Shown: piece after piece, positions 1,343-64,000 of the stretch
Numbering within the stretch: the stretch's first letter is position 1
Layout of the letters: the number at the start of each line of letters is the position of its first letter
Source of the DNA: Myxococcales bacterium
GTDB taxonomy: Bacteria > Myxococcota_A > Polyangia > Fen-1088
Length of the DNA: 64,000 bases
Assembly: GCA_031423255.1 (NCBI GenBank)
Contig: JANPFD010000022.1
Location: 6,704 to 70,703, forward strand
Direction: 5' to 3'
Notes under the pieces: model-generated
The model's input: the letters and a program-made list of their open reading frames with translations, nothing else
The model's database searches: none
What the model was told of the DNA's origin: nothing
Position numbers and translations under genes: made by a program

Positions 1343-1370
1343 TCTGGACTGAAACAGTCCGGATTGTTTT
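1343..1370. other. Second hairpin GGACTG-aaa-CAGTCC (extendable to ~9 bp) followed by T-run on + strand, in 5' region of PRMT-like gene
   Basis: Read directly. Would act as an intrinsic terminator only for plus-strand transcription. Confidence 0.25.
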
Positions 1371-1468
1371 CCCGCACGCTCCCAATGCTGCCGGCGACAA
1401 GAGCCGTGGCGCTGCCGAAGTACGTGAGTTTTGGTTTCACGTACGGCTTGCGTCCTCGTTGATCACTC

Positions 1469-1498
1469 GAGAATGGCTGAACCCCCCCAGCCATTCTC
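1469..1498 (-). terminator. 11-bp perfect stem-loop GAGAATGGCTG-(aacccccc)-CAGCCATTCTC immediately 3' of asnB-like stop
   Basis: Read directly. Overlaps the stop codon of the asnB-like gene. No U-tract follows on the minus strand. Confidence 0.3.
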
Positions 1499-47885: not shown

Positions 47886-49156
47886 AAATGGTCCGTCGCT
47901 ATTCGCCCCGACGTGAGTTTCTCCAGGGCGTGGGCCTCGGCGCCTTCGCGTTGCCGTTCCTGCGCGCGACCGAGGGGCGCGCCCAGACGCAGCCCAAGCG
48001 CCTGGTGGTGTTCTCCAGCCCGAACGGCACGGTGATGAACGACTTCTTCCCGGTGACGGGGAACGTGTACGGACGCATCCTCAAGCCTCTGGAGCCGCTC
48101 AAGAGCAAGATCGCCGTCCTGCGCGGCATCAACATGGAGACGGCCTACAAGACGCCGATCCCCAAGGACCACAACCCGGATTACCGGAACATGCTCACGG
48201 CGCGCCAGCCGACGGGTGATGGCACCAATTTCCGGGTCGAGGGCATCTCCATCGATCAGCACATCGCCAACGCCATCGGCACGAGGACCAAGTTCGCCTC
48301 GCAGCAACTGGGGGTGCTGGCCGTCTCGTATCAGATCTCCAGCCGTGGGGTCGGCCAGCCGATCAGCCCCGAGAACAGCCCGTACAAGGCGTTCACCCGC
48401 CTGTTCGCGGGAGTGACCGCATCGCCCACCGAGCTGGATCGCCTCCGCCGCGAGAAGAAGAGCGTCATCGACGCGCTGATTGGCGAGACGACCGACCTGC
48501 GCTGCGCGCTCGGCCGCGAAGAGAAGCCGAAGTTCGACCTCCACCTCGAGTCGCTGCGCGAGCTGGAGCGTAGCCTGGACATCCCCGTGGGTGCCGGCTG
48601 CCGCGCACCGGATCAGGGCGCGCCCGTCCCCGTCGACACCGCCAATGCCCAGCAGATCATGAAGCTGCAGATTGACATCCTGGCAGCGGCCATCGCCTGT
48701 GATCTCACCCGGGTCTTGACGCTCCAGCACGGTCAGGGCCGCCTGCCATACAGCTGGCTCGGCATCAATCAGAGCCATCACGGCATCTCGCACGGCAGCG
48801 AGGGGGTCACCGCGACCCAGGCGCAGCGCACCGAGTGGCTGGTCCTGATCGAGACCTGGATAGCGTCGCAGTTCTTCTATCTGCTGCAGAAACTGGACGC
48901 CATTCCCGATCCGCGCGGCACCGCGCTCGACAACACCGCGGTGCTATGGGCCCACGAGCAGTCGAACGGCGGCAGCCACCAGCGCAAGGACATGCCGTAC
49001 GTGCTGGCCGGTGGCCTCTTCCAGGGCGGACGCGCCGTCAACTTCGGCGGCAAGGCCCACAACGGCCTGCTCATCAGCCTGGCCAACGCCGTCGGCGTCC
49101 CCACGGCGGAGTTCGGCGACCCGGACTTCTCCCGGGGGCCACTGGCCGGGCTCTAA
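47876..49156 (+). CDS. DUF1552 family Tat-signal protein - module B partner
   Basis: SPRREFLQGVGLGAFALPFL Tat motif. IACDLTRVLTLQ. Start overlaps the upstream gene by 10 bp. Confidence 0.85.
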   Translation: MPMKMVRRYSPRREFLQGVGLGAFALPFLRATEGRAQTQPKRLVVFSSPNGTVMNDFFPVTGNVYGRILKPLEPLKSKIAVLRGINMETAYKTPIPKDHNPDYRNMLTARQPTGDGTNFRVEGISIDQHIANAIGTRTKFASQQLGVLAVSYQISSRGVGQPISPENSPYKAFTRLFAGVTASPTELDRLRREKKSVIDALIGETTDLRCALGREEKPKFDLHLESLRELERSLDIPVGAGCRAPDQGAPVPVDTANAQQIMKLQIDILAAAIACDLTRVLTLQHGQGRLPYSWLGINQSHHGISHGSEGVTATQAQRTEWLVLIETWIASQFFYLLQKLDAIPDPRGTALDNTAVLWAHEQSNGGSHQRKDMPYVLAGGLFQGGRAVNFGGKAHNGLLISLANAVGVPTAEFGDPDFSRGPLAGL

Positions 49157-49158
49157 CC

Positions 49159-50454
49159 TTAGACCAGCCCCGCCAGCCGGCCGGTGCTGTCGCCGAACGT
49201 ATCCACCGGCACACCGATCCGGTCCAGCAGGGAGACGTACAGGTTGTTCAGCGGGAGCTTCTCGTACCTGAGATGGCGGCCCGGCTTGACGGTGCCGCCG
49301 CCGCGCCCGGCCAGGACCACGGGCAGGTCGTCGTGGTTGTGGCGGTCGCCGTCGCCGATGCCGCTGCCGTAGACGATCATCGAGTTGTCCAGCAGCGTGC
49401 CGTCCCCCTCGCCGATCGACTTCAACTTCTCCAGCAGGTAGGCCAGTTGCGTGGCGTGGAAGCGGTTGATGCGCGAGATCTTCTGCAGCTTCTCGGGGTT
49501 GCGGCCGTGGTGGGACAGCTCGTGGTGCCCCTCGGGGATCTCCAGGTGCGGGTAGCTCTTGTTGCTGCCGGCGTTCGCTACCAGGAAGGTGGCGATGCGG
49601 GTGATGTCGCTCTGGAACGCCACCACCAGCAGATCGCACATCAGGCGGATGTGTTCCTGGTTGTCGCTCGGGATCTCCTCCGGCCGCCCGAAGGCAGGCG
49701 CGTCGACGGGCGGCATCTGCCCGAAGCGCGCGATTCGCTGCTCGATCTCGCGCACCGCCGTCAGGTACTCGTCCATCTTGCGGTTGTCGGTCTTGCCCAG
49801 CCGAGGCTTGAGGGACTCGAGATCCCGGGCCACGAAGTCGAGGATGCTGCGCTTCTGGCGATCGCGCTTGGGGTCCACACCCATGCCGAACAGGCGGTCG
49901 AACACCAGCGACGGGTCCACCTCCTTCGCCAGCGGCATCGTGTCTGACTTCCATGCCAGGTTCGACGAGTAGGCGCAGGAGTAGCCCGAGTCGCAGTTCC
50001 CGGACTGCGCGCCGCGATCGACGCCCAGCTCCAGAGACGGCAGGCGCGTCAGATGGCCCAGCTTCTGCGCCGCCACCTGGTCCGCCGAGATCCCGTTCTT
50101 GATGTTCGCGCCGTTGGTCTTGTGGGGGTGCGCGCCGGTCAGGAACGCGCCCAGAGCCCGCGCGTGGTCGCCCGGTCCGTCGCCGAGCGCGAAGGCATTC
50201 CGTTGCTCGAGGCCCGTGAGGACGGTGATCTCGTCCCGGACACTGCGCAGCGGCTCCAGGATCGACGGCAACGTGAAGTCCGTCCCCGCCTTGCTGGGCG
50301 TCCAGTCCGGCATGTGCACGCCATTCGGGACGTAGAGGACGGCGAAACGCAGCGGCGCCCTGGGACGCTTCGGCGCTGCCATCGCCTCGAGCCACGGCAA
50401 CGAGACCCCGATTCCCACCCCACGCAGCAATGTCCGTCGGGATAGCGACTTCAT
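49159..50454 (-). CDS. DUF1552 family Tat-signal protein - module C partner
   Basis: MKSLSRRTLLRGVGIGVSLPWL. FQSDITRIATFL. HDDLPVVLAGRGGG. ATG 50454 overlaps the upstream stop. The N-terminal 171 codons of the track ORF are rejected. Confidence 0.85.
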   Translation of the reverse strand: MKSLSRRTLLRGVGIGVSLPWLEAMAAPKRPRAPLRFAVLYVPNGVHMPDWTPSKAGTDFTLPSILEPLRSVRDEITVLTGLEQRNAFALGDGPGDHARALGAFLTGAHPHKTNGANIKNGISADQVAAQKLGHLTRLPSLELGVDRGAQSGNCDSGYSCAYSSNLAWKSDTMPLAKEVDPSLVFDRLFGMGVDPKRDRQKRSILDFVARDLESLKPRLGKTDNRKMDEYLTAVREIEQRIARFGQMPPVDAPAFGRPEEIPSDNQEHIRLMCDLLVVAFQSDITRIATFLVANAGSNKSYPHLEIPEGHHELSHHGRNPEKLQKISRINRFHATQLAYLLEKLKSIGEGDGTLLDNSMIVYGSGIGDGDRHNHDDLPVVLAGRGGGTVKPGRHLRYEKLPLNNLYVSLLDRIGVPVDTFGDSTGRLAGLV

Positions 50455-52709
50455 GGTGTGACCTCTCCGCGCCTCTTCAAGAATGGATCGCTGGTGACGA
50501 TCGCCAGCACCAGGCTGGAGAAGCTGTCCCCAGCCTCGAGCGTGCGATCCGCGATGTCGTCGATGGCCGCCCGGTCGAACGGCTCGGTGCCGCGGCCCGT
50601 GGCGTAGGTCAGCATCTTCTGCGCGAACGAGCGCCGGAACGCCGCCTCCTTGGTCTTCAGGACCGCCTTCAGCTCGGTCGGGCCGCGGAACGACTGGCCG
50701 TTTGGCAGCACCCCCGACGAATCGACCGGTGTGCCGCTCTCGTCCTCTTCCGTGCGCCACCCGCCGACGGCGTCGAAGTTCTCGAGACCGAAGCCGAGGG
50801 GATCCATCTTGCGGTGGCAGACGGCGCAGTTCGGGTCGGCGCGGTGCTGCTCCAGTTGCTGGCGCATCGTTCCCGCCAGCTGCTTCTTCTTCGTGTCCTC
50901 GATCAGGTCCGGGACGCCGGGTGGCGGTGGCGGTGGTGGCGTCCCGAACAGTTGCTCCAGCACCCACTTGCCCCGTTTCACCGGCGACGTCCGCGTCGGG
51001 TTCGACGTCACCGTCAGCACGCTGGCCTGGGTCAGCACGCCGCCGCGGGGCGTTCCCGCCGTGGAGACGCGACGGAACTCCGATCCCTCGACACCGTCGA
51101 TGCCGTAGTGGCGCGCCAGGCGCTCGTTCAGATAGGTGAAGTCCGCCTCGAGGAACGTGCCGAGGGGCAAGTCCTCGCGCATCACCGCTTCAAAGAAGAG
51201 CTCGGTCTCCTTCATCATCGACGCTCGCAGGTTGTCGTCGAACCCGGGGAAGCGCCGCCGCGACGGCCTGATGCTCGACAGGTTCCGGACCTGCAGCCAC
51301 TGGGTGGCAAAGTTCTCGACCAGGGCGTGGGCCTTCCGGTCCTGCAGCATCCGCTTGACCTGCGCACCCAGCACCTCGGGCTGGTGCAGGCTGCCGTCGG
51401 CGGCCTGCCGGAAAAGTTCGTCGTCCGGCATTCCGCTCCACAGGAAATACGACAGCCGTGAAGCCAGCTCCCAGTCGTTGATCGGGTGCGCTTCGCCGGC
51501 CGGATCGCCCGGATCCAGCTCGACCCGGAAGACGAAGTGCGGCGAGACGAGGATGGCCCGCAGCGCCACCTGCATCCCGCGCTCGAAGGTGTCGCCCTCC
51601 TCGACCGCCTGCTCGACGAACGTCACCAGCCGGTCCAGTTCCGGGCGGGCGACGGGACGCCGGTAGGCGCGCGTCGCCAGGGTCGCCAGGAATTCCCGCG
51701 CGTCGTCGCGGTAAGTCTCGGCGCCGGGGTGTCGAGGGATGATCCGGGTGTGACTGTCGGGCAGCGCGCGCGCCTTCACCCTCAGTGGCCCCTCGATGCG
51801 CAAAAAATCGATCGAAACCTGGCGCTTGGGCGCCGGATTCGCGAACGCCAGCTCGATCCGGTGCCGCCCCCCGTCGACGGCGAACTTGGTCGTGTACACC
51901 GACGAGCCGCGCACCTCGATGGTCTTTTTCTCCTGGCCATCCACCTTCAGGACAAGCCGCGCCCCGCGCCCCGCGGCCTTCACCTTGAACATGTACTCGG
52001 CCTGGGTCGGGAACTCGTGATGCGCGCGCACCGAGCCGGCGGCACTCATCACCAGCTTGCCGTTCTTGATCGCGCTGCCGGCGGGGGTTGGCGCCAGCTT
52101 CTCCACCTCGATCGTGTCGCCCCGGAACTTCGGGTCGATATCGGCGACGATCACCTTCTCGGCGATCCGGTCGGCGGCCGCGAGATAGCGCTCGACGAGC
52201 AGCGGCGGCATCGATAGCACGTCGCCGATGTTGTCGAAGCCGTAGCCGACGTCGTCGGAGGGAAACTGGTTCGCGGGCTTGAGGTCGACGCCCAGCAGAT
52301 CGCGGATGGTGTTGTTGTACTCGGCGCGGTTCAGCCGCCGGATGGTCACCCGACCCGGGTCGCGCTTGCCGTCCGCCGCGGCGCGGCTCTGCGCCCAGTC
52401 GATCCAGGCCATCAGGCTTTGGACCTCGGCCGCGGTCGGTTGCGGCTTCTCCTCGGGCGGCATCTCGCGTGCCTCCAGCCGCTCGGCCACGGTCTGCCAG
52501 ACGTGGATGTTCTTGAGCAACGCCGTCTCGTCCGCCCCGCGGAACGCCTCGAAGCTCAGGTCCCCTTTCTTTTGGTCACCCCCGTGGCAGGACCCGCAGT
52601 ACTTGTCGAGCAGGGGGACCATCTCGCGACCGAAGTCGGCCGCCTGGGCACTGCCACCGGCGAGCACCACAGACGCTACGCGGCACAAAGAAGCAGCCAG
52701 GCGAATCAC
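50451..52709 (-). CDS. DUF1592/DUF1588/DUF1587/DUF1585-family protein with N-terminal CxxCH (PSCyt-like) - module C
   Basis: Signal peptide. CGSCHGG at the N-terminus. RRLNRAEYNNTIRDLLG, AYRRPVARPELDRL. C-terminal CAVCHRKMDPLGFGLENFD. Confidence 0.85.
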   Translation of the reverse strand: MIRLAASLCRVASVVLAGGSAQAADFGREMVPLLDKYCGSCHGGDQKKGDLSFEAFRGADETALLKNIHVWQTVAERLEAREMPPEEKPQPTAAEVQSLMAWIDWAQSRAAADGKRDPGRVTIRRLNRAEYNNTIRDLLGVDLKPANQFPSDDVGYGFDNIGDVLSMPPLLVERYLAAADRIAEKVIVADIDPKFRGDTIEVEKLAPTPAGSAIKNGKLVMSAAGSVRAHHEFPTQAEYMFKVKAAGRGARLVLKVDGQEKKTIEVRGSSVYTTKFAVDGGRHRIELAFANPAPKRQVSIDFLRIEGPLRVKARALPDSHTRIIPRHPGAETYRDDAREFLATLATRAYRRPVARPELDRLVTFVEQAVEEGDTFERGMQVALRAILVSPHFVFRVELDPGDPAGEAHPINDWELASRLSYFLWSGMPDDELFRQAADGSLHQPEVLGAQVKRMLQDRKAHALVENFATQWLQVRNLSSIRPSRRRFPGFDDNLRASMMKETELFFEAVMREDLPLGTFLEADFTYLNERLARHYGIDGVEGSEFRRVSTAGTPRGGVLTQASVLTVTSNPTRTSPVKRGKWVLEQLFGTPPPPPPPGVPDLIEDTKKKQLAGTMRQQLEQHRADPNCAVCHRKMDPLGFGLENFDAVGGWRTEEDESGTPVDSSGVLPNGQSFRGPTELKAVLKTKEAAFRRSFAQKMLTYATGRGTEPFDRAAIDDIADRTLEAGDSFSSLVLAIVTSDPFLKRRGEVTP

Positions 52710-52752
52710 GCAATCTTACTACCGGCCCGGGCGATCCGCCGCTGAACCTCTT

Positions 52753-54036
52753 CTAAAGAGGCCGCTCGACCAGCCGGTACAGCCCTGGCGGGGCGTCCAG
52801 AATGACAATCGTCGTGACCTGGACGGCGAAAGCCGATATCCCATCCTTGACGACCTCGTACGGTTGTCCCTCCTCCCTCGTCGCTTCGACGGCGTAACGC
52901 TTGCCCGGGACCAGGACCGTTCGCAGCGTGAGCGTACCGTCCGTATACGTGAAGCTCGATCCCCACGGCTGGGCCAGAGGTTCGCCGATGAACAACCCTT
53001 CACCGGGCCAGAGCACCGTCTTCCAGTACGCTTCGACGATGGTCGCTCCGCGCAAATAGTGCGACAGCAGCACGCCGGCGTTGGGAAACTTCGTCGGGAA
53101 AGCACAAGGCTCCACGACCGTTCCGTAGCTGGCCGTGACGCCCGCCTCCAGCCAGCGCACCGCGCTCATCTGAGAGCTACTCGGCACGCGTCCACCGAAA
53201 GAGGTCATGTGATCCGCGACGGCACCCGGCAGATAGCTGTTCGTGCCGATGGCGTCGACGCTGGCCAGTGAGGTGAAATAGAAGAGCACGTCCGTCTTGT
53301 CACGAACATGGTTGGCTCCGTTTCCCATGGAGTTGTCGATGTAGTCCAGACTGAGCGACATCTGGCCGTTCCACGTCGTGACGGTCTGCTTGAACTCCGG
53401 CCACCGGGCGCTGCGGGCTGCATCGTTGGTCCTGATGAAGTACCCGTTCCCTCCCGGATAGGTCGCATCGGCCGCGACCCCCTTGTCGACGAGGCGCCGG
53501 GCGTCGTCGACGGACGCGGCCGCCAGCATCATCGCAGGGCGAATCCCGAGGTCGTCATGCGGACGCGTCGAGCTCGAGTCGTAGTAGGCCACCGGGGCCG
53601 TCGCGCTGCAGGTCCCTGTGCCTACCTTGCAATATTTGGCGTCGAAGCCCAGCGCCACCGCGGAGGTCATGGACATGCAATCGACCCGGTAGGGAGTGGT
53701 CCAGGTGATCGCATAGGCCTGAACCTCGGGCGGAGTGGCCGCGTCGATCTGGGCCTTGAGGGGAGCGAAACCATCTCGCGCAAGTACGGCGCCCGAAGGG
53801 TCGAACGCCAGGCGGATCACATTCTGTGGAGGAATTCTTCGCTTCTCCTGGTAGTACGCCGCCACCGCCACGGATTGCGGGTCGTTCGTGTTGACGAGGA
53901 TCGCAAGCTCTGCCGAGGTCACCGCCTGGCGTGGGAAGAGCACCCGCACCGACCCCGCAGCGCCATCGCTTTCGCTTTCGCGCACGCATCCCCCGAGGAG
54001 GAGGAGAACCATGATGGGCGTTCGCAAGCCGGTCAC
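52753..54036 (-). CDS. Hypothetical secreted lipoprotein
   Basis: MVLLLLGGC lipobox. 427 aa, no assignable catalytic motifs. Confidence 0.5.
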   Translation of the reverse strand: MTGLRTPIMVLLLLGGCVRESESDGAAGSVRVLFPRQAVTSAELAILVNTNDPQSVAVAAYYQEKRRIPPQNVIRLAFDPSGAVLARDGFAPLKAQIDAATPPEVQAYAITWTTPYRVDCMSMTSAVALGFDAKYCKVGTGTCSATAPVAYYDSSSTRPHDDLGIRPAMMLAAASVDDARRLVDKGVAADATYPGGNGYFIRTNDAARSARWPEFKQTVTTWNGQMSLSLDYIDNSMGNGANHVRDKTDVLFYFTSLASVDAIGTNSYLPGAVADHMTSFGGRVPSSSQMSAVRWLEAGVTASYGTVVEPCAFPTKFPNAGVLLSHYLRGATIVEAYWKTVLWPGEGLFIGEPLAQPWGSSFTYTDGTLTLRTVLVPGKRYAVEATREEGQPYEVVKDGISAFAVQVTTIVILDAPPGLYRLVERPL

Positions 54037-54039
54037 CTG

Positions 54040-56796
54040 CTACTCCCGGATGAGCTCCACAGGTCCTATCAGGCCAGCGGGCGGCGGGTCTTTGGTGACT
54101 TTCTTCTCCTGCGGGTCGGGAAACCGATTTCCGTAGGCAGCGCGGAGAGGACGGAGGTCCTCGTCGGGCAGGCCGAGGAGACGATTGAGCATCAGGTTGC
54201 CCACGGTCACTTTCACCGTGTTTTTGCCCTGTTTCAGCAGCGGACCTATCTCCACGTCGTAAGGAGGCAGCCAGACTCCGCCGGCCAGCTTGTCGTTCAC
54301 CCAGACCTCGCCCGCTTCCCGCACCTCGTGGAAACGAAGCTTGATAGACCCTCCCGCCGGCTCGTCCCAGGCGAAGGTCGTCTCGTAGGTCGCCTGGCCC
54401 GAGAAGGCTTTCCCGCCGGGCCATTGAATCCAGGACACCAGGTCGCCCGTCAGCACGGGGCGCGGCGCATCGGGGCCACTGAAGGTGACCTTCCACTCCG
54501 CGCCGTCCCATTTGCGGACCGATTCGCGGGACGACACGTCGGTTGCATCGAGGCGAACAAGTCTCGACCGAGATTCTGCTGTCGCACGTCGAGGGTAGAG
54601 CAAGAACGTGGAGCCGCGCGCGGCCAGATGGACTGGCAAGGGCCTGGCCGTCCCCCCGGGAGCAAGCCTCACACGGTGTTCGCCCGTTGCGGGATCGAGC
54701 TGGAGCACCGGCGTCTTCTGATGACCGAAGGTGAAATCGGCGGGGACGTCGGCGGTGTTGGCGACGAAGACGATGTCGTAGTCGGAGGTCCTTCGTTGCA
54801 CCGAGGCAACGCTCGGCTCCGATCTCAGCGGCGCAATGTGCGCGTTGCGGGCCCCCTCGGTGAAAACTGCGGAGGACGTGACGTCCGTTGCTGCGCCAAC
54901 GAAGGCGGTCTTCCCGCGTCCGACGTATGAGCCGCCAAAGAGTTCCCGGGAAAGTTGCTTCAGCCGAAGATCACGCGCCCGGTTCCCCGAAGCGCCACCG
55001 AACGATCTGTCCGGCGTGCGGCCCGTGGCGATGAGCGTGCCGCCTTGCCTCACGAACTCCGCGAGCTTCTCCAGAGCCTCCAGTTCCATCCCCTCCACGT
55101 CCGGCAGGATGACGACGGAATAGGCCCCGTCGCCACAGATCAGCTTGCCGCCCTTGATACTCGCCTGCCGGATGAGCGTCCAGAAGTCGATTCCGTCGAA
55201 GTTGTAGCCCCGAGTCACCAGCGTGTGGATGAGATCGGAGCGGTGCTTGCGGGCATTGACCAGGCTGAACTCACCGGTCTTCTCGCCGGTCACGAAATGG
55301 TCGCGCAGGAGAAAGTCGAGGGGCATCTGGGCCACGGGGCCGCGCGCAAACGCCTGCTCGACCGGAAGGTAGAGCGCGATCTGCGCGATGGGCTTGCCCT
55401 GTCGAAGCAGCCACTGGCTCCGGTTGACGTACTGAACGAGATACTTGAAGAAGGGCCACTGCGGGTTGTTCTGGTTCATCACCGGGCCGAAGTAGGGCAG
55501 CCAGCCGGGCGGCGCGACGCTTGGCGGAGAGTATGAGAAACCCACTCCGGTCAGGTCGTTGATGCCTGCAAGGAAATGAAAGTCCGAGGCGAGTTTCAGG
55601 TCGCGCAGGCTATCGACGAGACGGTTCGGGATCCCGGTCCAGGTCCACGCCTCCGCCCCGATGACGCGCTTTGCGGCGAGGTGTCCGCCCGAGGATGCGT
55701 AACGCGAGAAGGAGAAGCCCATCCACTCGTACTGCTCTCCGGTCGGGACGTCGATGTGGCGGAACGAGGTGAGAGGGCTGGGTGGCGTGCCGTAGGCCTC
55801 CATTTCCAACTTCACGCCGTGCTTGCCGGACCACGCGCCGAGCGGCTTCGTGAAGCGTTCCTCGTTCAACTCGGCCAGGGTGCGCCAGAAGTCGAAACGG
55901 AGGTCGGGTGACGTCACGCCTTTGTCGTCGAACAGTTCGACAAGGCGAGAGACAAGGTCGTAACCACGGCGCTTCAGGAACACCTGAGGCAGGTCGTGGG
56001 TCCAATTCGCGTTGTAGACCTCAAGGCTGTCGCAGAAGATCGACTCCACCAGCCCCGGCGCGGCCCGGAGCAGTGGGCTCACGTTCGCCTCCAGCCATCG
56101 CTCGAGCGCGGGCGTGTTGTAGTGATCGAGCACGTAACCGTCCGCCCCGAGGGCTGCGCGCTTGACCTTCATATAGGTCGGGCCCGTCACGAAAAGCGTG
56201 AGTGGTTCGTTGCCATGTGGCCGTTCATCCCCGATGGCGGGCAGGTCGATCCGTCGCTGCTGACGCCACGCCGCCAGGATCCGCTCGCCCTCCTGAAGCG
56301 TCGGCATCGCATACGCGGTGCCATCGGCTGTGGGAGGCACCGCCACCCGGCGGATACGCTGGGCGGCGTCCTGCAATCTGACGGTCGGTCCGCCGAACGG
56401 CCACCCGGTCCCGCCTTCCACACTGAATCGCAGTCCCAATGACTTCGCCTTCTTCGCGGCATACGCGAAGTTGTCCAGGAATTCCCTCGATAGAAAAGCC
56501 TGGTTCTTGATTCCCCTCGCCGGATCGTCGATTGCGACGGGATAGAACGGTATGAGCGTCACGCCACCCACACCGGCCTGCCTCAGCAACGTCAGTTGAT
56601 GGTCGATGCCCTCATGGTTCCACGCCGGTCCGAATACGTGCCAGTACATGCGCATCCGCGCCTCGGGCGGCGGGTTCAGGAAGCCCTCGAGCAGGGGATC
56701 GGCCTTCTGCTGCGCGTGTGCGTTCGGCTGGGCGGCCTGGGTGGCCAGCCATGCGGTCAGGAGAAGACCCCGACGACCGGCGTTTGATGTTGTCAC
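54040..56796 (-). CDS. Large secreted glycoside-hydrolase-like protein with C-terminal galactose-binding-like (GH2 sugar-binding type) domain
   Basis: Signal peptide. N-terminal (beta/alpha)-barrel-like region (MRMYWHVFGP...GVGGVTLIPFYP). C-terminal ...LKQGKNTVKVTVGNLMLNRL... resembles GH2 N-terminal jelly-roll. Family assignment is tentative. Confidence 0.55.
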   Translation of the reverse strand: MTTSNAGRRGLLLTAWLATQAAQPNAHAQQKADPLLEGFLNPPPEARMRMYWHVFGPAWNHEGIDHQLTLLRQAGVGGVTLIPFYPVAIDDPARGIKNQAFLSREFLDNFAYAAKKAKSLGLRFSVEGGTGWPFGGPTVRLQDAAQRIRRVAVPPTADGTAYAMPTLQEGERILAAWRQQRRIDLPAIGDERPHGNEPLTLFVTGPTYMKVKRAALGADGYVLDHYNTPALERWLEANVSPLLRAAPGLVESIFCDSLEVYNANWTHDLPQVFLKRRGYDLVSRLVELFDDKGVTSPDLRFDFWRTLAELNEERFTKPLGAWSGKHGVKLEMEAYGTPPSPLTSFRHIDVPTGEQYEWMGFSFSRYASSGGHLAAKRVIGAEAWTWTGIPNRLVDSLRDLKLASDFHFLAGINDLTGVGFSYSPPSVAPPGWLPYFGPVMNQNNPQWPFFKYLVQYVNRSQWLLRQGKPIAQIALYLPVEQAFARGPVAQMPLDFLLRDHFVTGEKTGEFSLVNARKHRSDLIHTLVTRGYNFDGIDFWTLIRQASIKGGKLICGDGAYSVVILPDVEGMELEALEKLAEFVRQGGTLIATGRTPDRSFGGASGNRARDLRLKQLSRELFGGSYVGRGKTAFVGAATDVTSSAVFTEGARNAHIAPLRSEPSVASVQRRTSDYDIVFVANTADVPADFTFGHQKTPVLQLDPATGEHRVRLAPGGTARPLPVHLAARGSTFLLYPRRATAESRSRLVRLDATDVSSRESVRKWDGAEWKVTFSGPDAPRPVLTGDLVSWIQWPGGKAFSGQATYETTFAWDEPAGGSIKLRFHEVREAGEVWVNDKLAGGVWLPPYDVEIGPLLKQGKNTVKVTVGNLMLNRLLGLPDEDLRPLRAAYGNRFPDPQEKKVTKDPPPAGLIGPVELIRE

Positions 56797-56804
56797 GTGT
56801 AAAT
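56788..56804. promoter_or_regulatory. Related imperfect palindrome TGTTGTCACGTGTAAAT overlapping the start of the glycoside-hydrolase gene
   Basis: Shares the CACGTGTAAA core with the 58695 site. Overlaps the GTG start at 56796. Confidence 0.3.
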
Positions 56805-56818
56805 CCCCGGCGGCACAG

Positions 56819-57874
56819 TCACGGCCGCGGGCGGCGCCGAGGCCGCTCGACCGGGGCGCCGGTCGACTCGCGCTCCACCAGCTCGACGGGCAGGATCTGG
56901 TGCCGGGGACGGAAGGGGACCTGACTGGAGGCCTGCTCGAGCACGCGCAGCACCGCCTGCGCGCCCAGCTGGGCTTTCGGCTGGCGTACGGTCGTCAAGG
57001 AGGGGGACAGGAACGGCGCGAATGAATCGTCGTCGTAGCCCACCAGCAAGACGTCGCGCCCCACCTGAAGGCCGCGCTCGGCGAACGCCCGCATCGCGCC
57101 GAGCGCGTGCAGATCGTTGGTGCAGAAAAGTCCGCGCGGGGCAGGGTGAGTCTCGAGGTACGCAAGCACGGCGGCATGGCCGTAGGCCTCGGGACGGGCG
57201 TGCAGGGTGCGATCGCCAGGGATGAAGCACGGGCGCCGCTTGTGCCGTTGGATGGCGCGGATGTAGCCCGCGCGGCGGGCTGCTACCGCGCTGTGGTCCG
57301 GCGAGGCCGACGCCTCCAGCAGGGCGGCGTCTACGCCGCGCGCCAGCAGATGATCGGTGGCGGCTGAAGCTCCCGCTTCGTGGTCCGCGATGACGAAGGT
57401 GTCTCGCGTCGTGAAGTGGTGGTCGACGAAAACCACCGGTCGCCGATCGGACACCCGGCGCCATAGCGCGAGATTCAGCCGGGTCACCACCGGTGTGGCG
57501 ACCACGCCGACGACGTCCAGACTGATCAGGTGTCGCAACATCTGCGCCTCGAGTCCCGGGTCGTCCCCGGAGCAGCGGTAGACGAGATCGTGATCGTGAC
57601 GTAGGGCCTCGCGCTCGGCCGCCTCCACGATCTCGGCGTAGAAGGCATTCGTCAGCGACGAGACCAGGAGGCCGATGGTGCGGCTGCGGCCCGATACCAG
57701 CTTGCGTGCGTAAAGGTTGGGAACGTAGTCGAGCCGCTCGCACGCCGCCTCGATGCGCCGGCGCACCCCAGGCGAGCCCGCCGATGGATCGTTGAGCACC
57801 TTGGAAGCCGTGACACGCGACACGCGCGCGAGGCGCGCCACGTCGGACATGGTGACGCGGGCGGAGCGGATCAT
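56819..57874 (-). CDS. LacI-family transcriptional regulator
   Basis: HTH VTMSDVARLARVSRVTASKVLN and periplasmic-binding-protein-like sugar-binding core. Confidence 0.85.
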   Translation of the reverse strand: MIRSARVTMSDVARLARVSRVTASKVLNDPSAGSPGVRRRIEAACERLDYVPNLYARKLVSGRSRTIGLLVSSLTNAFYAEIVEAAEREALRHDHDLVYRCSGDDPGLEAQMLRHLISLDVVGVVATPVVTRLNLALWRRVSDRRPVVFVDHHFTTRDTFVIADHEAGASAATDHLLARGVDAALLEASASPDHSAVAARRAGYIRAIQRHKRRPCFIPGDRTLHARPEAYGHAAVLAYLETHPAPRGLFCTNDLHALGAMRAFAERGLQVGRDVLLVGYDDDSFAPFLSPSLTTVRQPKAQLGAQAVLRVLEQASSQVPFRPRHQILPVELVERESTGAPVERPRRRPRP

Positions 57875-57916
57875 GACCCGAGCATCTTACAAGAGCGCCT
57901 GTCGTCGCCCCCAGTT

Positions 57917-58693
57917 TCATCGGGCGCAGTAGCCTCCATCGACCAGCAGCGACGCTCCGGTGATATAGGACGCCTCGTCGGATGCCAGGAACAGGGCCGC
58001 AGCGGCGATTTCCTCCGGCTCGCCTATGCGACCGAGCAGGATCTTCGGGCATTCCTCGGCGAGGAAGGCGTCATGATCGATGCCGTTGTCGGCGATCACC
58101 TTGCGCAGCGCCGGCGTCCACACTGCGCCGGGGCACAAGCAATTGGCGCGGATCCGGTGGGGCGCGAGGTCCATCGCCATGTTGCGGGTCATCTGGACCA
58201 CCGCCGCCTTGGTCGCGCTGTACGTCGTGAGCCGGGGTTGCGCGACGAAGGCCGAGATGGAGCCCAGGTTGACGATGGCCCCCCCGCCTCGCCGCTTCAT
58301 CTGGCGAACCGCGTGCTTGCTGGTCAAGGCCGTGCCCGTCACGTTGACCACCAGCGAGCGATGCCAGTCGTCCGCCGTCGCTTCCAGATCCTTCATGACG
58401 AACACGGCGGCGCAGTTGACCAGCACATCGATGCCGCCATATCGTGCGGCCGCCGCGTTACAGGCGCGCTCCACCGAGGTCTCGTCGGCGACATCGATGC
58501 TGGCGAAGGACGCCTCGCCGCCGGCGGCAGCGATCGCATTGCACACGCGCTCGCCGTCTGCGTCGTTGCGGTCTGTCACCAGCACCCGCGCCCCTTCACG
58601 GGCGAATCGTCGGGCTATGGACTCGCCGATCCCTGAAGCCGCGCCGGTGACGAGAGCGATCTTGCCTTCGAGGCGTCGTGTGAGTTCTTGCAT
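57917..58693 (-). CDS. Short-chain dehydrogenase/reductase (SDR) family oxidoreductase
   Basis: TGAASGIG cofactor motif, NCAAV, catalytic YSATKAAV (YxxxK). Confidence 0.9.
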   Translation of the reverse strand: MQELTRRLEGKIALVTGAASGIGESIARRFAREGARVLVTDRNDADGERVCNAIAAAGGEASFASIDVADETSVERACNAAAARYGGIDVLVNCAAVFVMKDLEATADDWHRSLVVNVTGTALTSKHAVRQMKRRGGGAIVNLGSISAFVAQPRLTTYSATKAAVVQMTRNMAMDLAPHRIRANCLCPGAVWTPALRKVIADNGIDHDAFLAEECPKILLGRIGEPEEIAAAALFLASDEASYITGASLLVDGGYCAR

Positions 58694-58694
58694 C

Positions 58695-58710
58695 CCGGAA
58701 GGTACTTTAC
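58695..58710. promoter_or_regulatory. Perfect 16-bp palindrome CTTTACACGTGTAAAG in divergent SDR / DUF1592-module-D intergenic region; candidate LacI-family operator
   Basis: Read directly. Left half CTTTACAC is the exact reverse complement of GTGTAAAG. It sits 0-50 bp from both start codons, with the LacI gene adjacent. Confidence 0.4.
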
Positions 58711-58740
58711 ACGTGTAAAGCCACCGAGTATAGTGGCTCG

Positions 58741-60375
58741 ATGGTCAGCAGTCGTCTCGCGCTCCTGATCCCCGCCTTGTTCCTGTCGGCGGCATCGTGC
58801 ATGGGCCAGATCGCCGGCGGCGATGACGGTGAAACCAGCGTCGAGCGAGCGACGCCCGGATCGATCCGTGTCTGGCGTCTCACGACCCAGCAGTACGACA
58901 ACACCGTTCGCGATCTTTTGGGGGACACCAGCAGGCCGGCTCGCCTTTTCACGCCGGACATCGGCGGCACCGGCTTCACGAACAACGCCGATCTGCTCGG
59001 AGTCAATCCGGCGCAGGCGGCCGAGTTCGCGGCAAGCGCGGCGCGACTCGCTTTCGATGCGGTCACCTCCAGGCTCGGCCGCATCTTCCCTTGCCCCGCC
59101 TCCCAGCTGACCGATGCCGGGTGTGCGCGCCAGTTCATCGAGACCTTCGGCCTTCGCGCTTTCCGGCGCCCGCTGGGCGCGGACGAGGTGGCCGCTTACC
59201 TCGGGCTCTACGCCCAGGGTTCACAGACGATCGACGCGACAGCGGGGCTGTCGCTGGTCATCGAAACGATGCTGCAGTCCCCGCACTTCCTCTACCGGAG
59301 CGAGATTGGCGATGGCCGCCCGGACTCTGGCGGTGAAGTGCGTCTCACCCCCCACGAGCTCGCCAGCGCTCTGTCGTATCACTTCGTGGGCAGCATGCCC
59401 GACGAGATCCTGTTCGCGGCGGCCAGCAGTGGCAGCCTGAGCACACCGGCGGGCCTGGGCGCGGAGGTCGAACGGCTGGCGGCCAGGGACGATGCACGCG
59501 CCCCGATGCTCGACTTTTACCGACAGCTCCTGGACTACGACGACGTCGGAAGTGTCACCCGCGACCCGAAGCTGTTCCCGAAGTTCGACTCGGTTCTGGC
59601 GAGCATGCAGCGTGAGACGCAAACGTTCATCGAGAAGAACGTCTTCGAGGGTGATGCTCGACTCGATACGTTGCTGACGGCGCCGCACAGCTACATCGAC
59701 GCCAACCTCGCTCCCATCTACCGGCTGCCCAAGCCGAACGGAACGACGATGGTGCGGGTCGACCTCGATCCCGGCCAGCGCGCCGGACTGCTCACCCAGC
59801 CCGGTTTCTTGACCATCCACTCCCTGCCCGACGAGACGTCGCCGCCGCGCCGGGGCAAGTCAGTGCTGGAGAAGATTCTCTGCCTGCACATCCCGCCACC
59901 GATCGACAACATTCCCGATCCGCCGTCTCCCGCGGGCAAGGAGAGCACCCGGCAGAAGTTCGAGCGCCTCACCGGTCCTCCTGTGTGCATGGGGTGCCAT
60001 CGGCTACTCAACCCCGCCGGCTTCTCCTTCGAAGCTTATGACGTCGTCGGGGCGTGGAGGACGGTCGACAACACGCTCCCCGTCGACACCCGGGTCGACC
60101 TGACTGGCATTCCCGGTGTCGACGGCCCGGTGGCCGGCGCCGTGGACCTGGTCAGGAAGATCGCCCAAAGCCGCGAGGCGGGGGAGTGCCTTGCGCGCCA
60201 GACGGTGCGGCATGCCTTCGGCCGCGAAACGGGCAGTGACGACGACGGACTCGTCTCAAAGATGTTAGCGCGCTTTCAAGCGACTGGCGGCAATGTGCGC
60301 GAACTGTTCGCGTCCGTGGCCGGCACCCGGGCCTTTACCCACCGGCGTATGGGGTTTTCGGCAGGTGTGCAATGA
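58741..60375 (+). CDS. DUF1592/DUF1588/DUF1587-family protein (short form) - module D
   Basis: Signal/lipobox LFLSAASC. WRLTTQQYDNTVRDLLG, AFRRPLGADEV. C-terminal CMGCHRLLNPAGFSFEAYD. Confidence 0.8.
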   Translation: MVSSRLALLIPALFLSAASCMGQIAGGDDGETSVERATPGSIRVWRLTTQQYDNTVRDLLGDTSRPARLFTPDIGGTGFTNNADLLGVNPAQAAEFAASAARLAFDAVTSRLGRIFPCPASQLTDAGCARQFIETFGLRAFRRPLGADEVAAYLGLYAQGSQTIDATAGLSLVIETMLQSPHFLYRSEIGDGRPDSGGEVRLTPHELASALSYHFVGSMPDEILFAAASSGSLSTPAGLGAEVERLAARDDARAPMLDFYRQLLDYDDVGSVTRDPKLFPKFDSVLASMQRETQTFIEKNVFEGDARLDTLLTAPHSYIDANLAPIYRLPKPNGTTMVRVDLDPGQRAGLLTQPGFLTIHSLPDETSPPRRGKSVLEKILCLHIPPPIDNIPDPPSPAGKESTRQKFERLTGPPVCMGCHRLLNPAGFSFEAYDVVGAWRTVDNTLPVDTRVDLTGIPGVDGPVAGAVDLVRKIAQSREAGECLARQTVRHAFGRETGSDDDGLVSKMLARFQATGGNVRELFASVAGTRAFTHRRMGFSAGVQ

Positions 60376-61808
60376 CCACCAGCCGTCGTGCCTTCTCGAG
60401 AATCCTGGGTACGGGCGCCTTCGCCGTGCCCCTGCTCTGGCGCTATGGCCGAACGATCGCCGCCGGTCCCTCCCCGTCGGGTCCCAGGCGGCTGCTGATC
60501 TTCTGGAACCCGCAAGGGAACTGCTCCGGTCTGCCCGTGAATGGCGTCGACGCATTCTGGCCCACCGGTACCGAGAAGGACTTCAAGCTCAGCCGGATCC
60601 TCGCTCCGCTCGAGCGCCACAAGAAGGATTTGCTGCTGCTCAAGGGGTTCAACGACTGGGCGACCATGGCCAGGCCGTTGTGCTCACCGATCGTGAGCGA
60701 TGGCGAGCACGGGTTTGGCACCATGTGCCGCCTGACGAACACGTGCCCGACGACGGCGAGCGTTGGTGGAGCGGCACCTCGCCAGTGGGGAGGCGGCATC
60801 TCCATCGACCAGGCGATCAGCCAGACCGTGGGTGCGGATACGCCCAGGCCGTCGCTCGAACTGATCGGCAGTGCCAACAAGAACTCCAACCACCGCGGGT
60901 TCATCAGCTACTCGGGCGCGGGCCGCCCCGTCATTCCGCAGGCGAGTCCGCTCGGCGCCTACGATTCTCTCTTCGGCGGCAGCACCGGGCTGGCCGGCGA
61001 TCCCGCGAGGGTGAAGGCATTGCGGGCGATGCGCAAAAGCTCCCTCGACCACATTCTCTCGGAGATCGCGCGCGTGCGCAGCCGGTTGCCCGCCTCCGAA
61101 CGAGCGAAGATGGACGGCCATTTCGAGGCCGTCCGCGTCCTCGAGCGCGACCTCGACGACCGGGCGCCGACCGTCTCCTGTGACCGCCAGCGGCCGCCTT
61201 TCCCGGCCGATCCCATCCCAACCTTCCCCACCCGGCATGAGTTGCACTTCCGAACCATCGCCGCTGCCTTCGCCTGCGATCTCACGCGTGTGGCCACGTT
61301 CATGGCCGCGTCCGGGGGAGGAGACACAGCCCCGGACCTCCGGGCGTTCATGCCGGACTGGCAGACGAACTATCACTCCACCGGACACGCGTCGGGCGGC
61401 AACTCCGACGGCGGCGGGAACAACGCTGCGGTTCGCGACCGCGCGCTCGAGGTGATGATCCGGGTCAGCACCTACTACGCCGACCAGCTGGCAAAATTCG
61501 TCGACGCATTGAAGGCCATTCCAGAAGGCGCCGGTACGGTGTTCGACAACACCGTGATCCTATGGTGCAGCGAAATGTCGCACGGGAACCACGGCAACAG
61601 CTCCGTGCCCTACGTCGTCATCGGCGGCGGCTGGCACCTCCGCACCGGGCGCTTCTTGGACCTGCCCACGTACAGCAAGTACGACTTCAGCAACAAATCC
61701 GGCACGCCGCTGGTGTTGATGGCGAACGCCATGGGGCTGCCAATCAGCAGCTTCGGGCGCGCCGACTGGTGCGACGGTCCCGACAAACTGACTGCAATCC
61801 GCGGCTAG
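60372..61808 (+). CDS. DUF1552 family Tat-signal protein - module D partner
   Basis: MTTSRRAFSRILGTGAFAVPLL Tat motif. FACDLTRVATFM. ATGA overlap with the upstream gene. Confidence 0.85.
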   Translation: MTTSRRAFSRILGTGAFAVPLLWRYGRTIAAGPSPSGPRRLLIFWNPQGNCSGLPVNGVDAFWPTGTEKDFKLSRILAPLERHKKDLLLLKGFNDWATMARPLCSPIVSDGEHGFGTMCRLTNTCPTTASVGGAAPRQWGGGISIDQAISQTVGADTPRPSLELIGSANKNSNHRGFISYSGAGRPVIPQASPLGAYDSLFGGSTGLAGDPARVKALRAMRKSSLDHILSEIARVRSRLPASERAKMDGHFEAVRVLERDLDDRAPTVSCDRQRPPFPADPIPTFPTRHELHFRTIAAAFACDLTRVATFMAASGGGDTAPDLRAFMPDWQTNYHSTGHASGGNSDGGGNNAAVRDRALEVMIRVSTYYADQLAKFVDALKAIPEGAGTVFDNTVILWCSEMSHGNHGNSSVPYVVIGGGWHLRTGRFLDLPTYSKYDFSNKSGTPLVLMANAMGLPISSFGRADWCDGPDKLTAIRG

Positions 61809-61825
61809 AGAAGGAGGCCTCACCA

Positions 61826-64000
61826 TGAACCGACTGTTTGTGTTCCATGCCGCTCTGGTCACGATGACAATCGGGGGTTGCGACGCGCAACGACCAGAAG
61901 ATCTCACCACGCTCCTGAGCCACGCAACCGCAGCGCCCGTCATCTATCAGCTCTCGCGCTATGATTTCAACTACGCGTTCAGTTACCCGGTCACCATCAG
62001 AGGCGCCAATCTGACGGGAACATCCACGGTGACCGCGGACGGCCATGCGTGCACCGGTCTGGTCGTTGTCGACGACTCCACCGTCACGTGTCAATCGCCG
62101 CTGAACCCCAACTACAGGATCTTCGACCTGGTCGACCTCATTCTGACGACGCCGAATGGGCAGTTCAATCTGGCAAAATCCGTCTACTGGTACGGCCAAA
62201 GTGGGGCCGGAGTCACGGCAGTCGCGAAGGACTATTCCGTCCCCATCGAGGTGTCAGTAACGACGAGTCCGCCGTCCACCGCCCTGACGTGGCCATCGGA
62301 AGGCGCGGCCACTAGCTACGAAATTTCCCGAAAAGCGCGCGCGAGTCATACATGGACTCCGCTTGCGACAATCGACGCTGCCAATGCTCCAAGGGCAACG
62401 TCATGGCAAGACACCAACGTCGTCGTCGGCGCCGCCTATGAATACAGGGTCAAGCGGACCTCGACGATCCTGGCGGCATTCATCGATCCAGTCATTCCAC
62501 AAAAACCCGCGCCGGTCACGAGCTACGGCTACGTTTATGCGGGCATCAACGTCTCACCCGTGGACCACCGCGGCACGGTCGTTCTCATCGTCGATCAGAA
62601 CATGGCTCCCGCCCTCGGTCCCGAACTCACGATGCTCAAAAGCGATCTCGAGGGTGACGGTTGGTCCGTCATCCGGCACGACGTTCGGCGAGGCAGCGTC
62701 ACCAATGAGAAGGGACCGGTTCCGTACGACCCCACGGGCGCATTGGCTGTGAAACAACTCATTGTGGCCGATTATCGCAAAAACCCGAAGGAAGTTAAGG
62801 CGGTGCTCCTCGTCGGACATGTCCCGGTGCCGTACTCGGGAAATTTCTTCCCGGCTGGGCATTCGAATGAACACCAGGGCGCCATGCCGGCCGACGTCTT
62901 CTATGGCGACATGGACGGCGTCTGGACCGATAGCGTGGTGAATGAGCAGACACCACACAAGATCTGGTTCTCGGCCTGGAACGTCCCGGGCGACGGAAAG
63001 TTCGACCAATCGAAGGTGCCGACGGAGGTCGAGCTCGAAGTGGGACGCGTTGACCTATGGGCGTTCAAAGGAGCCGGGGAAATCGCGTTGCTGAAACAAT
63101 ACTTCGCCAAGAACCACAATCATCGCCACGCTCTGACAGTCTTGCCGCGACGAGCTCTCATGGAAGAGGGAAGAGAGTCCGTCAAGGATGGAAGGGTCCA
63201 GAGCGGGCGTCGTTCATGGGCTCCGTTGGTCGGCGCCGCAAACATCGTCGGTGATACCTTCGCAAATGCCATAGGACAAAGGAAAGAGTCGTATCTCGGC
63301 TTCTGTATCTGGCATACGGGTTCCAATCAATATACCGGTAGCGTCAGCACCTACGGCTCTGTCGATCCCGATGGGGCGGGCCCCCGCCGCGGAAGTGACG
63401 GCCTGATATGGCCGAATGCGGCGGACGAGCCGAACATTGCCTTCTTCATGACATACGGAAGTCATCACGGCGATTGGGATCATGAATCGAACTTTCTGAG
63501 AGCTCCTCTCGCGACCAAGACCTATGGTTTGACCAACACCTATGGAAGCACCTACCTACACACCCTCGGCGTCGGTGGAACTTTTGGGGAGTCGATTCGA
63601 CTGAAACAGAACAACTCGACGACCTATGCCCCCTATGACGCAATCAACGGCGGCGGCGTTCATGAGGTGTTGATGGGTGATCCGACCCTTCGCATGTTTG
63701 CGGTCAAGCCGCCATCGGGGTTGGCGTCGAGCCTTGCCGGCAGTCACCCCAGTTTGACCTGGCAGGCCTCCCAGGACAGTTCCCTCCTTGGGTACTACGT
63801 CTATCGATCGACGAACCCAAGCGGTCCGTTCACCCGTTTGACGGCCGATCCCGTCACGCAGACGACGTGGACCGACAGCAGCGTTTCGTCGGGAACATTC
63901 ACCTATCAGGTCAAGGCGGCAAAGCTGGAGACGACGGCCAGCGGAACCTACGTCAATACCAGCCAGGCGATTACAGATACCGTGGCCATCGCCGCGAATG
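61826..64000 (+). CDS. Large secreted lipoprotein, 5' partial (continues beyond window), lower-GC composition
   Basis: ATG 61826. MTIGGCDA lipobox. My manual translation found no stop through position 64000, which would explain its absence from the ORF track. Frequent A/T-ending codons, unlike the rest of the window. Confidence 0.5.

Follow-up and report, generated by a model that had tools for sequence, protein, structure and literature searches.

Operators of LacI-family regulators are expected to be palindromes of even length, 16-22 nt, that are centred on CG. An even palindrome with CG at its centre has been found for 1173 of 1303 TFs of the family, and 72% of those TFs are autoregulated (PMC4052901). 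More than 75% of the LacI-family sites are located 30-140 nt upstream (PMC4052901). Members of this family that regulate rhamnose or rhamnoside utilisation are RhaR in Actinomycetales, RhmR in Chloroflexus and RhiR in Rhizobiales and Erwinia, among which RhmR governs a small rhamnosidase operon (PMC3870299). In Verrucomicrobia, PSCyt3 genes adjoin a conserved gene of unknown function; fusions with CBM hint at carbohydrates, and according to a study from 2017 nothing was known on the functions of the DUF1592-type and DUF1552 families (PMC5615132).

Both kinds of genes are found side by side in the window, i.e., the whole stretch of 64 kb that was analysed here, in which one of four DUF1592/DUF1552 modules, module D, is divergently oriented to genes that include a LacI-family repressor (Table 1). 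It is likely that the operator O1 and this repressor together control a small, local regulon directed at a glycan or glycoside that contains rhamnose, with which module D is probably co-induced. The source organism is uncultured, and the contigs are derived from metagenomes.

Table 1. Features of the locus, with positions counted from the first letter of the window
Feature	Position	Strand	Remarks
Module C	49159..52709	-	cytochrome-c DUF1592 (50451-52709), then DUF1552 ending at 49159
TIGR03790-family lipoprotein	52753..54036	-	2.5e-65; lipobox; begins 3 nt past the GH106 stop
GH106-family alpha-L-rhamnosidase-like enzyme, exported	54040..56796	-	Pfam Glyco_hydro_106 1.1e-49; signal peptide
Predicted operator O2, TTGTCACGTGTAAA	56790..56803	.	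12/14 to the O1 core
LacI-family repressor	56819..57874	-	HTH and sugar-binding domain
Classical SDR oxidoreductase, cytoplasmic, glucose-1-dehydrogenase-like subfamily	57917..58693	-	Pfam adh_short_C2 1.6e-67
Predicted operator O1, CTTTACACGTGTAAAG	58705..58720	.	perfect 16-bp palindrome, central CG
Predicted sigma70-type promoter	58706..58734	+	TTTACA-17 nt-TATAGT; 10/12 match
DUF1592-D lipoprotein	58741..60375	+	PSD3-PSD5-PSD4-PSCyt3-PSD2; lipobox LSAASC
DUF1552-D (HXXSHH family, PF07586)	60372..61808	+	Tat-type signal SRRAFS; start overlaps the DUF1592-D stop

The predicted operator sites and their probable repressor

O1 is contained in the 47 bp that separate the divergently oriented SDR and DUF1592-D genes. 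It is 11 nt away from the ATG of the SDR gene (58693 on the minus strand) and 20 nt away from that of DUF1592-D (58741 on the plus strand). The original prediction had described a palindrome between these two genes and a LacI-family gene between it and a second site, which agrees with our results, except that the palindrome had been positioned at 58695-58710 instead of 58705-58720. The second site, claimed as a half-site at 56788-56804, indeed overlaps the start of the GH106-like gene, but it is more than a half-site, because the 14-mer O2 at 56790-56803 matches 12 of the 14 core positions. O2 is positioned where lacI ends and GH106 begins, at a gap of 22 bp; it contains the GTG start codon (56796-56794) and includes CACGTGTAAA at 56794-56803.

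As a class, perfect 16-bp palindromes are not unusual in the window with its 68% GC (two of at least 16 bp were seen compared to 3.3 expected from Markov shuffles); what is unusual is the A/T-rich sequence of this one. The chance expectation for the exact 14-mer core is 9e-6 per 64 kb, and two core sites with at most two mismatches were observed versus 0.003 expected per 64 kb. Further core sites with up to three mismatches were not detected in the 64-kb window and the 3.9 kb beyond it, and the two sites with four mismatches are both situated within coding sequence. No Rfam family matched the O1 region.

The footprint comparison covered three loci, namely the window, L002 and L037, which represent the orthologue lineages with upstream DNA available. 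The LacI orthologues share only 58-62% identity with one another, yet each of the three loci has exactly the same 14-bp core, TTTACACGTGTAAA, next to the regulator (110-123 in L002; 4960-4973 in L037, where the palindrome comprises 18 bp centred on CG). In alignment A2 the core is the sole conserved intergenic block and the flanks are unalignable; its occurrence in both L002 and L037 has a chance expectation of 1.5e-6. The 11-mer ACACGTGTAAA is absent from the 36 other loci compared. The locus of the next-nearest LacI relative, L040 (40% identity), shows the same divergent layout of SDR and LacI genes and has a different palindrome, TAGAATCGATTCTA; hence, the motif tracks the orthologue group. 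Judged from these sequence comparisons, the LacI-type repressor encoded nearby very probably binds to the 16-bp palindrome. The half-site sequence of this operator is previously undescribed.

The repressor, whose gene is located 0.8 kb from O1, matches PF00356 (LacI, 8.2e-13), PF00532 (Peripla_BP_1, 7.6e-18) and PF13377 (Peripla_BP_3, 9.6e-28) and aligns end-to-end with RbsR, LacI and PurR, the leucine of the hinge helix included. Its true start is probably Met9 at 57850, because the orthologues begin with MSDVAR. The hinge reads YVPNLYARKL compared to YIPNRVAQQL in LacI; Leu59, which corresponds to LacI Leu56, is invariant across the three orthologues, and the recognition helix VSRVTASKVLN is kept in them as well. 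In the structures of LacI and PurR, the central CpG of the operator is where the hinge-helix leucine inserts. Outside the three metagenomic lineages no relative of the regulator exceeds 41% identity, and its named homologues are all at most 36% identical and represent generic 'LacI family' entries.

Leftward genes and the possible signal

The SDR gene is the first one leftward of O1, and its product reaches 258 bits with NCBIfam NF005559 (cutoff 215). The glycoside hydrolase that had been noticed at the locus can be specified as GH106 here and GH78 in L037, both of which are alpha-L-rhamnosidase families. The GH106-like protein of 918 aa also matches the BT4145-type alpha-L-rhamnosidase of NCBIfam (4.7e-93), a score under the equivalog cutoff. 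GH106 and GH78 are unrelated families with the same activity. Taking the three loci together, the targets beside the sites are the SDR gene (window and L002), the GH106 gene (window, at O2) and the GH78 gene (L037). The operator lies beside the SDR gene in L002, 15 nt from the ATG of this enzyme gene, and 7 nt from the alpha-L-rhamnosidase gene in L037. Overall the sites are found 0-15 nt from start codons, which would fit only with leaderless or very short-leader transcripts, and the scan detected no consensus promoter in L002 or L037.

Further leftward, the TIGR03790-family lipoprotein is a possible additional member of the operon; between 48900 and 56900, neither a promoter-like site nor a convincing intergenic terminator-like site was detected. 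Module C runs co-directional with the leftward genes. The 43 nt in front of it contain a weak hairpin, with a TAAGAT hexamer just before its GTG; hence, it may have its own promoter. Read-through from O1 into module C is possible but unproven.

The regulon is probably an ordinary local one of the LacI type that responds to a rhamnoside, since non-homologous rhamnosidases of GH106 and GH78 are found directly at operator sites in different lineages and LacI-family rhamnoside regulators are established elsewhere (RhaR, RhmR, RhiR; PMC3870299). However, it is possible, if not the case that we would expect, that the regulon is real while its signal is a compound which the SDR converts or forms, or another sugar from a complex glycan, the rhamnosidases being accessory targets. 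SDR and LacI genes are paired at the window locus, in L002 and again in L040, the 40% relative, and the SDR has no specific assignment, whereas a rhamnosidase occurs in two of the three orthologue loci, its absence from the 1.8 kb of L002 being uninformative. Moreover, rhaABD, LRA2-4 or a rhamnose transporter were not seen, and those promoters of the window, L001, L002 and L037 that have an operator are not linked to genes for rhamnose catabolism or for a rhamnose or rhamno-oligosaccharide transporter, so that rhamnose as the effector is a guess.

Module D and its putative promoter

DUF1592-D has a single CxxCH haem-c motif (CMGCH, residue 416), and module D is without the N-terminal PSCyt1 cytochrome domain, whereas modules A and C have it. 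DUF1552-D models as an alkaline-phosphatase-superfamily (sulfatase/phosphodiesterase-like) fold; the model has the core alpha/beta fold common to sulfatases, NPPs and phosphoethanolamine transferases, and H113, S144, D146, H335, H339 and H407 are invariant. With such a fold, ester hydrolysis or transfer is more to be expected than oxidation, and a role of the module in glycan oxidation, as had been suggested originally, has no direct support.

The predicted promoter in front of module D uses the left half of O1 as its -35 element, and its predicted +1 at 58741 is the A of the DUF1592-D ATG. It is the only sigma70-like match of at least 10/12 on both strands of the 64-kb window, compared to 0.15 expected. 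A Shine-Dalgarno sequence was not found upstream of the DUF1592-D ATG, in which several modules elsewhere differ, and the transcript is predicted to be leaderless. Since the operator overlaps the -35 of a predicted promoter reading into DUF1592-D, co-repression of the module is mechanistically plausible.

We regard it as unlikely that O1 controls the leftward SDR-lacI-GH106 operon only and that module D is an unrelated neighbour, which is constitutive or separately controlled. With a gap of 47 bp, a dimer bound 20 nt from the DUF1592-D ATG would be hard to ignore, and the left half of O1 coincides with the -35 of a promoter-like site that has no equally strong counterpart in the window and places +1 on this ATG. 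The comparative data nevertheless favour a leftward function: L002 and L037 keep the operator near the ATG of the enzyme genes and not on the other side, and four modules within 64 kb make the adjacency to a LacI locus cheap and likely by chance. The DUF1592-type and DUF1552 pairing also occurs in L038, L039, L042 and L043; the contexts of the five closest homologues of module D are unrelated to one another, with reversed gene order in two, and none of the five contains LacI, an SDR-LacI pair or a GH gene. Likewise, no module is present in the short loci L002 and L037 or at the other LacI-relative loci compared. Hence, from the single regulon of the original prediction, the LacI-type operator tied to a carbohydrate locus is supported, given the identical core at the L002 and L037 orthologues, while membership of such modules as a rule and their general association with LacI sugar loci are not. 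The operator on the predicted module D promoter in one genome represents a testable, unconserved clue to the function of the module.

Finally, it is very improbable that the palindrome is no LacI site at all but a product of chance, part of a PmlI-type CACGTG restriction site, two -35 hexamers that face each other or a target of another regulator, because, despite the chance frequency of such palindromes in the window and the resemblance of TTTACA to a -35 hexamer, 14-16 bp are conserved beside LacI orthologues in three lineages with diverged flanks and are absent from the other loci compared, L002 and L037 have no -10 at 17 nt from the core, and an Rfam match is missing.

Proposed mechanism and comparison with known systems

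In the local rhamnoside regulon that we favour, a repressor dimer would occupy O1 when the inducer is absent, with each HTH in contact with one half-site, TGTAAA(G), and the leucines of the hinge helices inserted at the central CpG. The SDR start codon follows 11 nt after O1, which would also span -36 to -21 of the opposite promoter; hence, one bound dimer would occlude both divergent promoters. O2 might serve as a weaker second site on the GH106 start codon downstream of lacI, acting as a roadblock or blocking an internal promoter. The repressor would be autoregulated, because lacI is situated inside the leftward operon. We infer that the exported rhamnosidase would release a rhamnose-derived sugar in the periplasm, the uptake of which would release the repressor. 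The rightward promoter would then drive DUF1592-D and DUF1552-D in the source genome, where module D, as a lineage-specific recruitment and not by a general property of such modules, is probably co-induced with the rhamnosidase. It appears doubtful that module D belongs to the regulon with its periplasmic haem-c lipoprotein and Tat-exported alkaline-phosphatase-superfamily esterase acting on a decorated, e.g. sulfated or phosphorylated, rhamnose glycan; the pair would then act before or alongside the exported rhamnosidase. Ulvan-type loci pair rhamnosidases with sulfatases, for example the GH78/S1_25 enzyme of Formosa agariphila (PDB 6hr5).

The locus adds one more local sugar regulon of the LacI type, with a new operator sequence, from a poorly sampled, uncultured Myxococcota-like lineage. 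Genomes of Planctomycetes, Verrucomicrobia and Myxococcota each have numerous DUF1592-type/DUF1552 pairs. A copy that is connected to a defined repressor and to a sugar which can be named would offer an experimental handle on the module, for which the modelled fold of DUF1552-D, the Tat export and the CxxCH partner narrow the candidate activities. If module D is part of the regulon and acts in this way, the very abundant PSCyt3/PSD-DUF1552 modules in Myxococcota and PVC bacteria would receive their first physiological role defined by an inducer.

The sites of PurR, RbsR and GalR share the common core AA(N)CG(N)TT, whereas the operator described here reads TTTACA-CG-TGTAAA, with TGTAAA pointing outward from the centre, and its sites are found 0-15 nt from start codons instead of 30-140 nt. 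In domain architecture, hinge leucine and even palindrome with a central CG, the system is like the LacI/GalR systems LacI, RbsR, PurR and GalR (PMC4052901), as it is in having an operator beside the gene of the regulator, a few target genes for sugar utilisation and, probably, autoregulation. With RhaR, RhmR and RhiR it shares a LacI-type repressor, a palindromic operator and a (here predicted) alpha-L-rhamnosidase gene at the operator; given the divergence, it is unlikely to be orthologous to them. It differs from these regulators in that the visible regulon has no transporter and no rhaABD or LRA pathway, in its Myxococcota-like lineage, and in that one putative target operon is an orphan cytochrome/AP-superfamily pair. 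Module D shares its canonical domain string and the DUF1552 gene beside it with the PSCyt3/PSD and DUF1552 modules known from Planctomycetes, Verrucomicrobia and Myxococcota; unlike its five nearest homologues, it is located on the predicted operator of a sugar repressor.

The palindrome and its surroundings

The 47-bp gap between the divergent SDR and DUF1592-D genes houses the palindrome CTTTACACGTGTAAAG (site O1), which occurs as a single copy in the window and lies 10 nt to the right of where the original prediction had placed it, although between the two genes as claimed. The second site, O2 (TTGTCACGTGTAAA), had been described as a half-site at the start of the glycoside hydrolase gene. 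It does overlap this start, the GTG codon of the GH106 gene falling inside the 14-mer, and it is more than a half-site, with 12 of its 14 positions agreeing with the palindrome core.

Features of the locus and the DUF1592-type/DUF1552 modules of the window
Feature	Position	Strand	Remark
Module A	23335-26822	-	DUF1592-type/DUF1552
Module B	46164-49156	+	DUF1592-type/DUF1552
Module C	49159-52709	-	DUF1592-type/DUF1552
TIGR03790-family lipoprotein	52753-54036	-	gap of 3 nt from GH106 gene
GH106-family alpha-L-rhamnosidase-like protein	54040-56796	-	918 aa; gap of 22 nt from LacI gene
O2	56790-56803		14-mer
LacI-family regulator	56819-57874	-	leftward of SDR gene, gap of 42 nt
SDR, classical short-chain dehydrogenase	57917-58693	-	left side of O1 gap
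O1	58705-58720		16-bp palindrome
Module D	58741-61808	+	DUF1592-type/DUF1552
DUF1592-type protein (DUF1592-D)	58741-60375	+	right side of O1 gap
DUF1552 protein (DUF1552-D)	60372-61808	+	start overlaps DUF1592-D stop

Palindromy was dropped as an argument for an operator and alone is no evidence, because perfect palindromes of at least 16 bp occur at chance frequency (2 observed in the window versus 3.3 expected in composition-matched random sequence). The specific core sequence, unlike palindromy, is evidence of more than chance. For the exact 14-mer core, 9e-6 occurrences are expected per 64 kb of 68% GC DNA, and core sites with at most two mismatches were found twice versus 0.003 expected per 64 kb, both flanking the LacI gene, which sits between them as predicted. 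Neither the window nor the 3.9 kb past its end holds a further core site with up to three mismatches, and the two four-mismatch sites of the window are both within coding sequence. DNA looping between O1 and O2, which are 1.9 kb apart, was considered and set aside, the regulator showing no sign of a tetramerisation tail.

The region 48000-64000 gave no match to Rfam families. The GH106 and TIGR03790 genes (52753-56796) have a GC content of 64% and a GC3 of 0.80, the GC3 of their neighbours being higher (0.83-0.89), which hints at an origin other than that of the regulator and the modules.

Conservation of the site and its regulator

The comparative footprint is based on three lineages, the window and the loci L002 and L037, which carry LacI orthologues with upstream DNA; it is limited to these because broader searches gave no further close orthologues, and the contig of a third orthologue (L003) is uninformative with 18 nt upstream only. 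At L002, which belongs to assembly GCA_034690465.1 and whose regulator is 62% identical, CTTTACACGTGTAAAC is placed 15 nt before the start of a divergent SDR-like gene and 88 nt before that of the LacI gene. L037 belongs to the JGI assembly 3300038379, and its regulator is 61% identical (the L002 and L037 regulators share 58% identity). Here the perfect 18-mer CCTTTACACGTGTAAAGG sits upstream of both the LacI gene, at a distance of 103 nt, and a divergent gene for a GH78 alpha-L-rhamnosidase, at 7 nt. In the intergenic alignment of the orthologue loci the palindrome is the sole conserved block, and the 11-mer ACACGTGTAAA is absent from all 36 other loci compared. The phylogenetic footprint is clean, though it comprises three lineages only.

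Two distant LacI relatives were ruled out as additions to the footprint. At L040 (P0244, 40% identity) the divergent SDR/LacI layout is kept with another CG-centred palindrome (TAGAATCGATTCTA, 5905-5918), in keeping with operators that differ between orthologue groups, and no recognisable palindrome was found at L041 (P0245). The pairing of SDR and LacI genes may predate the link to rhamnosidases. The SDR gene of L040 is frameshift-fragmented in that assembly, and a PfkB sugar kinase gene follows the LacI relative. Synteny of the window locus with L037 based on CotH genes was rejected, since these are merely 25% identical and hence not orthologous; likewise, SDR orthology between the loci was not retained, the similarity being generic and the L002 fragment too short. 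Convergent with the LacI orthologue of L002, a gene at 1252-1740 (minus strand) encodes a c-type cytochrome domain (CLKCH) that is not DUF1592-type, so that a haem-c protein adjoins this regulator in a second lineage too.

The regulator carries LacI HTH and sugar-binding domains and can be aligned over its full length with RbsR, LacI and PurR, the hinge-helix Leu59 taking the position of LacI Leu56, and its recognition helix is conserved across the three orthologues. It is isolated in phylogenetic terms. A word-indexed search across 5.8 billion proteins gave no more than two clusters with over 41% identity (at 61-62%), and among 1.84 billion representatives scanned in full with HMMER a single cluster exceeded 50% (at 61%). 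In the reference genomes and JGI metagenomes scanned there was no full-length relative above 33% identity, besides two partial fragments at 38-40%.

A predicted promoter and a possible link to module D

The left half-site of O1, TTTACA, together with a 17-nt spacer and TATAGT forms a predicted sigma70-type promoter (10 of 12 positions matching); counting either strand, the window has a single match this good versus 0.15 expected. Its predicted +1 at 58741 is the A of the DUF1592-D ATG, and this gene has no preceding Shine-Dalgarno sequence, in contrast to several other modules. A repressor sitting on O1 would cover positions -36 to -21 of this promoter. That the promoter is native to the module was rejected, because TTTACA-17-TATAGT is found upstream of none of the other modules. 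No promoter like that of the window satisfied the scan criteria in L002 or L037. As an observation given no weight here, hand reading shows TTGACA or TTGACG there on the enzyme-gene strand exactly 8 nt upstream of the core (L002 132-137 and L037 4984-4989, minus strand), so that any -10 element would fall within the operator; the window locus is without this hexamer and has an opposite-strand TATAGT at that position instead.

Co-regulation of module D with the LacI locus in this genome is plausible, with about an even chance of being real. As a clue to the general function of the module family the LacI link is weak. The closest homologues of DUF1592-D (44-47% identity) and DUF1552-D (44-56%) are found in five unrelated contexts with neighbours including sigma54 activators, LysR, kinases, GerE-type regulators and aconitase. 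LacI or GH genes lie beside the module in none of the five; one module has a pectate-lyase-like gene at a distance of ~10 kb. Two of the five show the reverse gene order. Modules are absent from the compared loci of the other LacI relatives and from the 8.9 kb of L037, and with four modules in the window a module beside any given locus is unsurprising. That the regulon extends to module D, as originally proposed, can be put forward as a reasonable and testable hypothesis for this genome only.

All four DUF1592-type copies of the window have CxxCH in the PSCyt3 domain, which in DUF1592-D is the single such motif and is accompanied by the lipoprotein signal LSAASC; copies A and C contain an additional N-terminal cytochrome-c domain. 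DUF1552-D has a Tat-type signal (SRRAFS), and its AlphaFold model, built with a 69-sequence alignment, is confident (pLDDT 85.7, pTM 0.81). The model favours ester hydrolysis or transfer as the putative activity of this subunit over the glycan oxidation suggested initially. More speculatively, the pairing of a rhamnosidase with an esterase would loosely resemble ulvan degradation.

Modules B and C are convergent, with stop codons 2 nt apart (49156/49159). The leftward gene string runs co-directionally into module C, and no promoter-like or intergenic terminator-like site was predicted along it. TAAGAT hexamers precede the annotated lacI ATG by 9 nt (57884-57889, minus strand) and the DUF1592-C GTG by 3 nt (52713-52718, minus strand). 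Either may serve as an internal -10 element, its short-leader geometry being that seen at O1, or the latter may be the own promoter of module C. Downstream of module D, at 61825-64000 and beyond (locus L001, 146-6050), a 1300-aa TIG/Calx-beta protein is followed by a CotH-family protein. The TIG/Calx-beta gene has a strong Shine-Dalgarno sequence and a GC content of 58.9% versus 68% for the window; this segment may be horizontally acquired or part of the rightward transcription unit of module D.

Rhamnosides as likely signal and the LacI family

Operator sites adjoin enzymes of GH106 (window) and GH78 (L037), two unrelated families both containing alpha-L-rhamnosidases, and LacI-family regulators of rhamnose or rhamnosides are known, such as RhaR of Actinomycetales, RhmR of Chloroflexus, and RhiR (PMC3870299). 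Taken together, the system reads as a putative rhamnoside-responsive local regulon. This reading calls for caution on three counts. The GH106 match is far under the equivalog cutoff (313 versus 1300 bits). The SDR assignment is generic ('glucose-1-dehydrogenase-like'), no specific substrate emerging from PDB or NCBIfam comparison; it may act as a sugar 1-dehydrogenase, e.g. L-rhamnose 1-dehydrogenase. Transporter or downstream catabolic genes are not visible in the putative regulon. The original view of the palindrome as the LacI operator of a sugar locus is well supported by the three-lineage footprint and the family fit, and can be sharpened to rhamnosides.

In a RegPrecise study, 1251 of 1303 LacI-family motifs were even palindromes of 16-22 nt and 1173 had a central CG, the sites mostly lying 30-140 nt upstream; 72% of the regulators were autoregulated and ~90% were local sugar regulators (PMC4052901). 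O1 agrees with these motifs as an even palindrome of suitable length with a central CG. The position differs, however, because the four sites (O1, O2, L002, L037) are 0-15 nt from start codons instead of the usual 30-140, which fits only if the transcripts are leaderless or have very short leaders. The system represents a further case of a known LacI-type class, and its value is mostly that it offers experiments a way into an abundant orphan module.
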